Source: Escherichia coli
GTDB taxonomy: Bacteria; Pseudomonadota; Gammaproteobacteria; Enterobacterales; Enterobacteriaceae
Strand: one strand, 5' to 3'
Assembly (NCBI RefSeq): GCF_003334385.1
Contig: NZ_QOWN01000038.1
Length of the DNA: 42,323 nucleotides
In this document: positions 25,362-27,440 of the stretch, piece after piece
Numbering within the stretch: the stretch's first letter is position 1
Layout: each line of letters starts with the position of its first letter
The notes under the pieces: model-generated
Databases searched by the model: none
The model's input: only the letters and a program-made list of their open reading frames with translations
Told to the model about the DNA's origin: nothing
Made by a program: the position numbers and the translations under genes

Positions 25362-25697
25362 ATGATAAGCACCGTCGCATTATTTTGGGCTTTATGTGTC
25401 GTTTGCATTGTTAACATGGCGCGCTATTTCTCATCACTACGCGCGTTGTTAGTGGTACTGCGTAACTGCGATCCATTGCTCTATCAATATGTTGATGGAG
25501 GGGGCTTTTTTACCTCACATGGCCAACCCAACAAACAGGTGCGTCTCGTTTGGTATATCTATGCCCAACGTTATCGCGATCATCACGATGATGAATTTAT
25601 TCGCCGCTGTGAGCGGGTGCGTCGGCAGTTTATTCTGACCAGCGCATTGTGTGGTCTGGTGGTGGTCAGCCTGATTGCATTGATGATTTGGCATTAA
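25362..25697 (+). CDS. uspB: Universal stress protein B (small membrane protein)
   Basis: 111-aa ORF with two hydrophobic segments, divergent from uspA; SD GGAGGAGG immediately upstream. Confidence 0.95.
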
Positions 25698-25775
25698 GCA
25701 CTTCAGCAATAATAACGCATAAAAAAAGCGGGCCAGTAAACTGACCCGCTCGAGACTGATTACAAACGCAAAATT

Positions 25776-25874
25776 GCCTGATGCGCTACGCTTATCAGGC
25801 CTACATAATCTCTGCAATCTATTGAATTTGCATGTTTTTGTAGGCCGGATAAGGCGTTCACGCCGCATCCGGCA
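25776..25874. repeat. Pair of inverted REP elements (BIME) between uspB and pitA
   Basis: gcctgatgcgctacgcttatcaggcctac (25776-25804) and tgtaggccggataaggcgttcacgccgcatccggca (25839-25874). Confidence 0.65.
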
Positions 25875-25940
25875 TGAACAAAGCGCACTATGTCACAATC
25901 TGAAGCGGGCCAGCTGACCCGCTCGTTTTGGTGCGTACGA

Positions 25941-27440
25941 TTACAGGAACTGCAAGGAGAGCCAGTACAGCCCGCCGGAAAGCAGTACCGCAGCCGGAAG
26001 GGTAAACACCCAGGCCATCAGAATGCTGGTCACGGTTTTACGCTGTAAGCCGCCACCATCTACCACCATCGTCCCCGCGACAGAAGAGGAGAGTACGTGA
26101 GTAGTGGAAACCGGCATCCCGGTATAACTCGCCAGGCCGATAGACACTGCCGCCGTCATCTGGGCAGACATCCCCTGAGCGTAGGTCATGCCTTTCTTAC
26201 CGATTTTCTCACCGATAGTCGTTGCCACACGGCGCCAGCCAATCATCGTACCGATACCTAACGCCAGCGCGACCGCCATGATGATCCACACCGGTGCATA
26301 CTCGATGGTGCTAAGCATGTCGGACTTCAGTTTCTTCAACAGGCGCTGATCGTCAGCACTCACGCCAGGCATCTTCACCACTTTGTCGATAGTGTCAGAA
26401 ACGCACAGCATAATGCGGCGCATCTGGCTACGTTGATCAAGCGACAGCTTGTCGTAGCTTTCCACATCGGTGGTCAACATACCTTTCAGGCGGTTGAGCG
26501 CGTTAATGGTATTCGACGGATGGCAGTGGAACTCCGCAGGTTGCGTTGCGCCAGCTTCCGGAGCCGGTACTAACTGATCAGCACCGGTAGCCTGTTTGAG
26601 CAGCGCAGGATGCTGCTCAAAGTAAGCTTCGACGTTGTTGATGGCATCACGGGTACGGGTGATTTCGTAGCCAGTGGCATTCATGTTCACCACGAAGCCT
26701 GCTGGCGCGACGCCAATCAATACCAACATAACCAGACCAATGCCTTTCTGACCATCGTTCGCGCCGTGCGAAAACGCCACGCCGATAGCGGAAAGGATCA
26801 GCGCAATACGCGTCCAGAACGGCGGCTTTTTCTTGCCGTCTTTCTTTTCACGCTCCGCTGGGGTCAGGTGGATACGGGCGCGTTTCTTGGTGCCGCTCCA
26901 GTAGCGACGCAGCAAGAAAATCAGACCGCCAGCAAACACCAGGCCGACAATAGGGGAAACGATCAGAGAACCGAAAATACTTAATACTTTCGGGATATTG
27001 AGTGCATCCACCACTGACGTCCCGGTCATCAACGCATTGGTTAAACCAATCCCGATGATCGCGCCAATCAGCGTATGAGAGCTGGATGCAGGTAAACCAA
27101 AGTACCAGGTACCCAGGTTCCAGATAATCGCCGCCAGCAACATAGAGAACACCATGGCAAGGCCATGAGACGATCCCATATTAAGCAGCAGATCCGTCGG
27201 CAGCATATGCACAATGGCATAGGCAACACTCAGACCACCCAGCAAAACACCCAAAAAGTTGAATACCGCCGCCATAACCACGGCGAGCTGAGAACGCATC
27301 GCGCGGGTATAGATAACGGTTGCCACGGCGTTGGCTGTGTCATGGAAACCATTGATGGCTTCGTAGAACAGCACAAAAGCCAGTGCAAGCAATAATAACA
27401 GCCCGGTATGCAAATCCAGGCCAGCAAACAAATGTAGCAT
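25941..27440 (-). CDS. pitA: Low-affinity inorganic phosphate transporter PitA
   Basis: 499-aa polytopic ORF with duplicated PHO4 signature ([15 protein letters not shown]... / [10 protein letters not shown]); exact length match. Confidence 0.97.

Follow-up and report, generated by a model that had tools for sequence, protein, structure and literature searches.

The two near-identical hairpins that lie between uspB and pitA in a 42,323-nucleotide stretch of K-12-like Escherichia coli DNA (the window, here and below) are very probably two copies of one ancestral bidirectional terminator, which would have been duplicated when a BIME-1 element inserted at the foot of the hairpin. The two genes are convergent, and the spacer between them is 243 nt long. 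A first-pass annotation had pointed to near-identical stem-loops on either side of a pair of REP palindromes in this spacer, and this is confirmed at 25726-25752 and 25903-25925, the two copies differing by a TAAA loop. The features of the locus are as follows.

25362..25697, plus strand: uspB coding sequence (ORF list; RefSeq annotation of identical loci), the mRNA of which extends into the hairpin and BIME region.
25721..25727, minus strand: A7 run, read from the sequence and the minus-strand terminator scan as the putative U7 tract of the pitA terminator.
25726..25752, unstranded: hairpin copy 1 (AAGCGGGCCAGTAAACTGACCCGCTCG; stem 25728-25749, loop TAAA), the left copy of the target duplication and the same as the hairpin of the empty allele.
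25753..25902, unstranded: complete BIME-1 of 150 nt, delimited by allele alignments and missing from the empty-site allele.
25903..25925, unstranded: hairpin copy 2 (AAGCGGGCCAG / CTGACCCGCTCG), the right copy of the target duplication; the K-12-type allele lacks its TAAA loop.
25926..25929, plus strand: T4 run, the U-tract of the uspB terminator, with a mapped RNA 3' end at 25928.
25941..27440, minus strand: pitA coding sequence (ORF list; RefSeq annotation of identical loci), convergent with uspB.

Hairpins 1 and 2 abut opposite ends of the BIME-1. When copy 1 is compared with copy 2 (AAGCGGGCCAGCTGACCCGCTCG, 25903-25925), the sole difference is the 4-nt TAAA loop that is absent from copy 2; the K-12 copies are identical at 23/23 positions, including a C/A mismatch and the flanking AA and TCG. 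A repeat search of the window returns exact direct repeats of 11 nt (25726/25903) and 12 nt (25741/25914). The hairpin pattern is found nowhere else in the 42 kb, for a chance expectation of ~0.01.

The element between the hairpins is, as typed from its sequence, a BIME-1, that is, a REPIN-like quasi-palindrome made up of an end motif, a y REP, an L linker, a z1 REP and a second end motif. Its left end motif, (G)AGACTGATTACAAACGCAAAAT, is followed by an inverted y REP (GCCTGATGCGCTACGCTTATCAGGCCTAC, 25776-25804), the L linker (25805-25839), a z1 REP (GTAGGCCGGATAAGGCGTTCACGCCGCATCCGGC, 25840-25873) and the right end motif, ATGAACAAAGCGCACTATGTCACAATCTG(A); the two REPs form an inverted pair, and their y and z1 types were assigned by eye against the definitions in PMC3333891. 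In Rfam, the L linker matches ES036 (42 bits versus a gathering threshold of 37.6) and the z1 REP gives a partial match to naRNA4, and beyond these two REP-derived families the search returned only sub-threshold chance matches (L20 leader, suhB). The 35-nt linker (...TGCAATCTATTGAATTTGCA...) is conserved in the BIME-1 copies at glpD, entD-fepA, fbp, artJ-rlmC and yfeW-yfeX. Furthermore, the 22 nt to the left and the 28 nt to the right of the REP pair each recur 6-14 times per E. coli genome, and the flanks of the pair are thus part of the repeated element rather than unique spacer. The complete unit, with consensus GAGACTGATGACAAACGCAAAA...GAACAAAGCGCACTTTGTCAACAATCTGA and a length of 147-154 nt, is also present at entD-fepA, glpD, gudD-barA, cueO-gcd, fbp, yfeW-yfeX and artJ-rlmC. 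It has the properties by which BIME-1 (the RIP/RIB type) is defined, namely an inverted y and z1 pair, a long conserved L linker, and occurrence as a single extragenic unit that is present in some strains and missing from others (PMC3333891). The long L linker of BIME-1 often carries an IHF site, and the mobilisation of BIME-1 is presumed to be due to the REP-associated tyrosine transposase TnpA_REP/RAYT. The presence or absence of whole BIME-1 units among strains is known from earlier literature (cited in PMC3333891).

The repeat at this locus is confined to the hairpins. The first-pass annotation had noted a gattaca-containing segment after each stem-loop, but these segments do not belong to the repeat: the first is the end motif of BIME-1, and the second overlaps the pitA stop codon. 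The first gattaca is moreover a private, K-12-type G-to-T change of a GATGACA consensus, which is retained by the other alleles and by other BIME-1 copies. Evidently, the resemblance between the two motifs is coincidental.

Comparison of E. coli genomes reveals both an occupied and an unoccupied form of the locus. The long allele is covered by 1,941 of 5,426 complete E. coli genomes. A short allele, smaller by 173 nt, is found in ~3,460 of 5,400 locus-bearing genomes (~64%), the latter being the E. coli genomes that match the short-allele query. The short allele (...CATAAAAAAAGCGGGCCAGTAAACTGACCCGCTCGTTTTGGTG..., its context also read as ...CATAAAAAAAGCGGGCCAGTAAACTGACCCGCTCGTTTTGG...) contains a single hairpin with A7 on one side and T4 on the other (A7-hairpin-CG-T4), and no REP. 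When the two forms are aligned, the long allele equals the short allele plus the BIME-1 plus a second copy of the hairpin, exactly: an insert of 173 nt (177 nt in rare alleles) is placed after ...CCCGCTCG and ends with the second hairpin copy. This agrees with the earlier suggestion that the BIME was inserted into a pre-existing terminator hairpin. The other half of that suggestion, that BIME and hairpin were copied together, is not supported; a donor locus for the two as a unit was considered and rejected, the hairpin being specific to this locus (and unique in the window) and only the BIME ends being repeated.

The rare alleles with the 177-nt insert belong to 1919D3, BHUCD02 and VE-V11-M. 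In these three genomes copy 2 is a perfect 27-nt duplicate of copy 1 (27/27), with the TAAA loop identical in both. In every allele the duplicate is direct, since the two copies do not differ in the orientation of the C/A mismatch or of the AA and TCG at their flanks. Only 3 of ~1,942 long E. coli alleles still have the TAAA loop of copy 2, and in E. albertii the loop of copy 2 is TTTA, the reverse complement of TAAA. The interior of the BIME in BHUCD02 and VE-V11-M is divergent and identical to the BIME-1 at artJ-rlmC, while the right ends keep features specific to uspB-pitA; this indicates that the interior was probably overwritten by ectopic gene conversion from the artJ-rlmC element. We had also considered that the BHUCD02-type allele might be an independent, recent insertion, and rejected this, given that its right end shares private K-12-type features around an interior of artJ-rlmC type. 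As a separate observation, the flanks of the BHUCD02-type allele are nearly identical to those of a short allele.

The single-hairpin form extends well beyond E. coli. In an ancestry scan of one genome per species, which recovered 80 uspB loci, the motif CGGG[C/T]CAG-loop-CTG[A/G]CCCG occurs exactly once between uspB and pitA in 62 of the 80, from more than 15 genera, and two copies occur in none of these 62 motif-bearing loci. The single hairpin is bracketed by A- and T-runs in the 62 Enterobacteriaceae species loci, with an A-run before it in nearly all outgroup loci; its loop is TTTC in almost all genera and TAAA or AAAA in Escherichia. Four Escherichia species other than E. coli have the short allele with one hairpin and no REPs. 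According to the first-pass annotation, orthologous spacers that lack REPs and still carry both hairpins would imply that the hairpins arose independently; all the REP-free spacers checked (~3,460 in E. coli, four Escherichia species, and the 62 of 80 species loci) carry one hairpin and never two. Two hairpins around a BIME-1 are found only in E. coli, Escherichia sp. MOD1-EC7003 (L008) and E. albertii. The design of a bidirectional terminator, with one hairpin, an A-tract upstream and a T-tract downstream, is therefore seen in the E. coli empty allele and in ~60 species. Given the single-hairpin spacers across the outgroups, we conclude from this comparison of sequences that a single two-way terminator is the ancestral state for uspB-pitA, and the A7 run at 25721-25727 would be a legacy of it. 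In Salmonella and some Citrobacter, unrelated REPs lie on one side of the single hairpin, and there is no duplication.

To find other loci of this kind, metagenome contigs were scanned with the left end of BIME-1, and loci were then scanned with both ends, which yielded 10 independent loci with intact ends. At fbp-DUF2569, the filled allele reads AACGCCGGATTGCTCCGGCGTTT + BIME-1 + AACGCCGGATTGCTCCGGCGTTT-TT, with a 23-nt hairpin on each side. It is present in a metagenome contig and in the complete genome CP045690.1, the host being a non-coli Escherichia whose fbp is ~95% identical to that of E. coli, and eight empty alleles (seven genomes with an identical Fbp protein and one RefSeq genome) contain one hairpin each. 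At yfeW(pbp4B)-yfeX, the filled allele, found in 1,401 of 5,426 E. coli genomes, reads GGCCAGTCAGTAATGTTACTGGCTGGTCT + BIME-1 + GGCCAGTCAGTAATGTTACTGCCTGGCCT, with a 29-nt hairpin on each side, while only one hairpin, A5-GGCCAGTCAGTAATGTTACTGCCTGGCC-TTT, is present in the empty alleles (O157:H7, strain H3). Hence uspB-pitA, fbp-DUF2569 and yfeW-yfeX all have direct repeats that abut both ends of the element and one copy of the repeat at the empty site, and in all three the target is a hairpin between an A-run and a T-run, located between convergent genes. Local alignment of the cognate left and right flanks gives scores of 26, 23 and 24 at these three loci, compared with a mean of 5.4 +/- 0.9 and a maximum of 8 for non-cognate pairs (n=70).

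The duplication is not a constant companion of BIME-1. Among the 10 intact-end loci, three have whole-hairpin duplicates, one has an 8-9-nt repeat, and at six no repeat was detected; where a repeat exists, its length is 25-27, 23, 29 or 8-9 nt instead of a fixed value. Given that the duplication is neither universal nor constant in length, a fixed-length duplication made by a transposase is unlikely. The end of the element abuts the foot of a stem-loop at ~10 of 12 loci, a count made by eye and not a formal statistic. At gudD-barA, where the BIME is fixed in E. coli and has no empty allele, the right flank matches the left hairpin at 15/25 positions by eye, with an alignment score not above background; this locus may hold a decayed copy of the hairpin. 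The glpD locus was examined as a further filled/empty pair and set aside as uninformative, as the gene and the terminator downstream differ in the supposedly empty genomes.

These comparisons also bear on other ways in which two similar hairpins could have come to surround a BIME-1. Two terminators that evolved independently and became alike only by convergence on a GC-rich stem would explain why each hairpin bears a U-tract for one gene only. Convergence does not, however, produce 23/23 identity in K-12 and 27/27 in three strains, and the second hairpin is missing wherever the BIME is missing, so that the allele and outgroup comparisons refute this explanation and we assign it practically no weight. 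A fold-back event, in which replication switched templates across the palindromic BIME and left a reverse-complement copy of the hairpin on its other side, has slightly more to recommend it: BIME and hairpin are both palindromes, the whole region folds as one long hairpin, and flipped loops do occur at these loci (TAAA versus TTTA, GCAA versus TTGC). An inverted copy would nevertheless read GGGTCAG...CTGGCCC with a TTTA loop and the ends CGAGC...GCTT, whereas what is observed is GGGCCAG...CTGACCC with the ends AAGC...GCTCG; the perfect alleles keep TAAA, and the duplicates at fbp likewise have the same loop orientation, TTGC in both. A fold-back origin is accordingly most improbable.

The duplicate could, on the other hand, have been acquired in two steps, either by a tandem duplication of the hairpin with later entry of a BIME between the copies, or by two insertions at opposite feet that then recombined within the BIME. 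Both feet are plausible targets, as BIME-1 ends abut a stem-loop foot at most loci, and recombination between BIME-1 copies does take place, as seen in the conversion tract from artJ-rlmC. The intermediates expected on these paths are missing, though: neither a hairpin-hairpin allele without a BIME nor an allele with a single hairpin and a BIME occurs in the E. coli genomes sampled or the 80 species loci. The same end product at three unrelated loci is, moreover, improbable for a multi-step path. We consider a two-step origin improbable, if less so than the two preceding explanations, and the reading retained is that of one ancestral terminator duplicated upon insertion of the BIME-1.

Regarding the age of this event, the E. 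albertii insert is orthologous to that of K-12, with which it has private linker and end features in common. It is 93.4% identical to the K-12 insert, versus 93.2% for the flanking 1.4 kb, and since the ortholog is as diverged as its flanks the insertion must be old. When a neighbour-joining tree is built from the uspA-uspB flank, all the long alleles fall in one clade, made up of E. albertii, L008 and E. coli. Flank trees do not separate the long from the short alleles of E. coli, which interleave; a long-allele genome (L085) and a short-allele genome (L228) differ at 1 of 2,830 flank positions. Such interleaving could be due either to recombination that shuffles the alleles or to precise loss through the 27-nt repeats.

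The latter possibility leads to a different polarity. Inside Escherichia the two-hairpin allele would be the older one, and E. coli would have derived its single-hairpin alleles from it by precise removal of the BIME together with one copy of the hairpin, through slippage or recombination at the 27-nt direct repeats. Deletion in this form concerns polarity only and does not deny the original insertion. The equal divergence of insert and flanks between E. coli and E. albertii, the long allele of the divergent Escherichia sp. L008 and the interleaved flank trees are all compatible with it, and direct repeats around a palindrome are, as a matter of general knowledge, classic substrates for deletion. 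It has to contend, however, with the single hairpin in four other Escherichia species and in all other genera. In addition, a loopless single hairpin, which would be proof of deletion from a K-12-type long allele, is found in none of 5,423 genomes; loss via the 11-nt repeat of the 5' arm should generate this form about as often as the single hairpin that is observed, unless it is selected against. We therefore regard deletion as the source of the E. coli short alleles as rather unlikely.

Returning to insertion into the ancestral terminator, how the duplication arose is inferred from the footprints at three loci. Whichever strand is read, the hairpin sequence is linked through its 3' end to a 5' end of the element, and the duplicated segment consists of the stem-loop plus 0-3 nt. 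We tentatively propose, at appreciably less than even confidence, that the duplication was made during insertion. Both strands of the palindromic target would be nicked, each at its own 3' foot and in the way that an extruded cruciform is resolved; the element would be joined to the resulting 3' overhangs, and fill-in of the gaps would duplicate the whole hairpin, possibly with the involvement of a REP-associated HUH transposase. At uspB-pitA, the 150-nt BIME-1 would have entered between stem and T-run, that is, at the hairpin's 3' foot, and the whole hairpin (25-27 nt) would have been duplicated in direct orientation, so as to leave a copy on either side of the element. Subsequently, most E. 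coli long alleles would have lost the TAAA loop of copy 2, and in E. albertii it would have been flipped to TTTA. The corresponding general rule, that BIME-1, as a REPIN-type element, integrates at the 3' feet of stem-loops and that palindromic targets are cut on both strands so as to duplicate the hairpin (23-29 nt), is put forward just as guardedly.

The polarity of the insertion point fits HUH chemistry because the 3'-OH is on the target and the 5'-phosphotyrosine on the element: TnpA_REP, a relative of the IS200/IS605 transposases, cuts single-stranded DNA to leave a 3'-OH and a 5'-phosphotyrosine (PMC3333891). The loci resemble the IS200/IS605 family (HUH/Y1, 'peel and paste') in that those elements have sub-terminal hairpins and the insertion point here is, on either strand, at a stem-loop's 3' foot. 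HUH transposition of the IS200/IS605 type, which is presumed to be the model for REPs, gives no target duplication (PMC2817692), however, whereas duplications of 23-29 nt are present at three loci here, and no short specific target sequence is common to the junctions. TnpA_REP cuts between the C and T of CT dinucleotides, and the BIME-1 junctions show no consistent match to this rule; the bases 5' of the left junctions (…GCTC, …GTTT, …GTCT, …GCCT, …GCAT) have only a pyrimidine in common. A simple reaction by RAYT alone is thus disfavoured, as the junctions show no evident CT preference, IS200/IS605 transposition gives no duplication, and the duplication is absent at most loci.

The target-site duplications of DDE transposons and MITEs are similar in that direct repeats stand at both ends of the element and one copy at the empty site. 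They differ in that the length here is not fixed (29, 25-27, 23, 8-9 and 0 nt) and follows the size of the target palindrome, not the stagger of an enzyme. Class C bacterial group II introns and the REP-targeting elements IS1397 and IS621 also insert at or after stem-loops in intergenic DNA, a hairpin or terminator structure being what they select as target; they carry genes for their own machinery, and they are not known to duplicate the hairpin as a whole. Compared with known BIME-1 elements, what sets the present ones apart is the direct duplicate of the entire target hairpin (23-29 nt) that bounds the element at three loci. What is new here is accordingly an ordinary BIME-1 with an unusual and recurrent target duplication of hairpin length. 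No paper linking BIME or REPIN insertion to duplication of a hairpin was found in the literature searched, although an earlier description is possible. The location of BIMEs between convergent genes and their overlap with bidirectional terminators were already known (PMC3333891; bioRxiv 10.64898/2026.03.23.713779), 78 REPs lying within 306 predicted bidirectional terminators, and the mode by which REPs and BIMEs spread is still called unknown (bioRxiv 10.64898/2026.03.23.713779).

The consequences of the duplication for transcription termination were considered next to its origin. In a terminator scan, copy 1 gives a strong call on the minus strand, with 11 pairs followed by TTTTTTT, and copy 2 is called on the plus strand with the T-run at 25926-29. 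The predicted RNA folds have energies of -13.9 (plus strand) and -19.6 kcal/mol (minus strand) for copy 1, and of -11.8 (plus strand; z -0.6, weak) and -15.8 kcal/mol (minus strand) for copy 2. Folding is better on the pitA strand for either copy, as a G.U pair takes the place of the C.A mismatch there. On the plus strand, copy 2 forms 5-6 pairs around an 8-nt loop, followed by CGUUUU, and is a weak hairpin without the TAAA loop. Hence a GC-rich stem-loop with an adjoining U-tract, as in intrinsic terminators, is present in copy 1 on the minus strand (U7) and, weakly, in copy 2 on the plus strand.

Published Term-seq data (Adams et al. 2021, PMC7815308) place a strong 3' end on the uspB strand at MG1655 3639154(-), listed twice, with 130,524 and with 25,150 reads, and the sequences printed in the supplementary tables at the uspB 3' end are ...CTGACCCGCTCGTTT and ...GAAGCGGGCCAGCTGACCCGCTCGTTT, the latter with the boundary before a T. 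The MG1655 coordinate equals 3,665,082 minus the window coordinate, as derived from the offsets given for pitA (+46) and uspB (-13) in the PMC7815308 tables. The uspB 3' end thus maps to window position 25928, the third U after copy 2, and represents either termination or 3' processing. Together with the T4 run and the terminator scan, it upholds the earlier description of the second hairpin as terminator-like on the plus strand. The PMC7815308 Term-seq tables contain no 3' end of pitA at copy 1, where termination of pitA, with the U7 tract, is predicted. A Rho-dependent 3' region farther along, antisense to pitA at about window position 26290 (PMC7815308), suggests some read-through.

The whole 3' UTR is predicted to fold as one long hairpin on either strand, at -82.9 kcal/mol (z -5.8) on the plus and -101.7 kcal/mol (z -8.2) on the minus strand. 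The basal stem of this fold is formed by the 5' arm of copy 1 and the 3' arm of copy 2, with a U-tract adjoining it on either strand; because the target is a palindrome, its direct duplicate also serves as an inverted one. The insertion would have split the two-way terminator, copy 1 keeping the U7 for pitA and copy 2 the U4 for uspB. Each mRNA would read through the hairpin nearer to its gene, for which its strand offers no U-tract, and then through the BIME, to end at the far hairpin. The outcome would be a mutually complementary, REP-containing 3' UTR of ~200 nt for both uspB and pitA. Bidirectional intrinsic terminators have the same design as the empty-site allele and the outgroups (a hairpin with an A-tract and a T-tract), whereas the filled allele would consist of two one-way halves ~175 nt apart, with mRNAs that overlap by ~200 nt. 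Without the duplicate, the U-tract of uspB would adjoin the weak end of the BIME instead of a GC-rich stem, and the stem beside this U-tract is a plausible selective reason to retain the duplicate. That duplicate alleles persist at bidirectional terminators in general because a stem is kept next to each U-tract is a proposition for which we see even chances.

Taken together, our results describe two states of one locus within a species. About one third of E. coli, K-12 included, would have long, mutually complementary, REP-containing 3' UTRs for uspB and pitA and a split terminator, and the other two thirds one compact two-way terminator; for annotation purposes, hairpin 2 is the experimentally supported terminator of uspB in K-12. 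No repeats are more abundant in E. coli than REPs and BIMEs, and duplication of a hairpin's length is a rare footprint of their insertion. Its presence at three loci with clean filled and empty alleles sets a constraint on the mechanism, which would involve paired cuts that flank a palindrome, and provides natural test substrates. If the proposed mechanism is true, this would be the first sequence footprint of how REPs and BIMEs insert, and it would explain how these elements can colonise two-way terminators without loss of termination for either gene.

Ectopic gene conversion is seen among dispersed copies of BIME-1, the 150-nt element that lies between the two uspB-pitA hairpins in long alleles. 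The copies compared are the following:

uspB-pitA BIME-1 of strain BHUCD02 (L085), positions 1804-1975
uspB-pitA BIME-1 of strain VE-V11-M (L095)
artJ-rlmC BIME-1 of strain Ecol_224 (L238)

In both uspB-pitA copies, the interior of the element is that of the artJ-rlmC BIME-1, identical over ~75-95 nt, and the ends remain locus-specific despite this artJ-rlmC-type interior.

At cueO-gcd of CFT073 (L089), the right end motif of BIME-1 alone is left and is joined directly to a terminator hairpin (…CCGGGCAT/GAACAAATCGCAC…CAATCTGA, with the slash at the junction), while a full BIME-1 is present at cueO-gcd in other contigs (L175/L189). An internal deletion bounded by CCGGGCAT and the REP end CCGGCAT would fit this CFT073 remnant. 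At the 3′ end of glpD (L091/L094/L101), the terminator hairpin arms, CAGATT...AATCTG, are similar to the inverted repeats at the BIME-1 termini (TCAGATTG / CAATCTGA), and the 3′ arm beside the T-run is re-formed by the BIME right end plus CCT. This likeness could reflect microhomology at insertion or be coincidental.

Insertion sequences also occur at such loci. E. coli JNQH498 (L088), which has the long allele, carries an IS30-family element in the uspB 3′ region, between the uspB stop codon and hairpin 1 and just upstream of the A-run. In E. coli F5656C1 (H328), an IS1B copy lies inside the BIME-1-bearing yfeW-yfeX region, where the match falls into two pieces across 1,378 nt.

The terminators of uspB-pitA (window 25728-25749; spacers L005-L084 of other genomes) and fbp (L218/L221 versus L102/L220) were observed to keep constant stems while their loops are flipped. 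Among the uspB-pitA spacers, the loop is TTTC in ~15 genera and TAAA or AAAA in Escherichia, with copy 2 of E. albertii reading TTTA. At fbp, empty alleles (L218/L221) have GCAA, whereas filled ones (L102/L220) have its reverse complement, TTGC. This looks like recurrent loop inversion inside perfect-stem hairpins at both loci.

The uspB-pitA synteny is itself not universal, since the gene directly following uspB in several Raoultella, Enterobacter and Leclercia loci (L015, L022, L024, L058, L079, L081) is not pitA but another one, which lies behind a different hairpin.

Published Term-seq tables (PMC7815308) place a strong RNA 3′ end on the uspB strand at window 25349 (MG1655 3639733), for which they give 109,975 and 42,672 reads. 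This end, 13 nt upstream of the uspB start codon, sits within the GC-rich uspB 5′ leader (GGGAGCGGTAGCCCCGGGG...) and could represent premature termination or processing in the 5′ UTR. The bicyclomycin table of the same work also lists a Rho-dependent 3′ region on the uspB strand at window ~26290 (MG1655 3638792), antisense to pitA, which implies that some uspB transcription reads through beyond hairpin 2 into antisense pitA.
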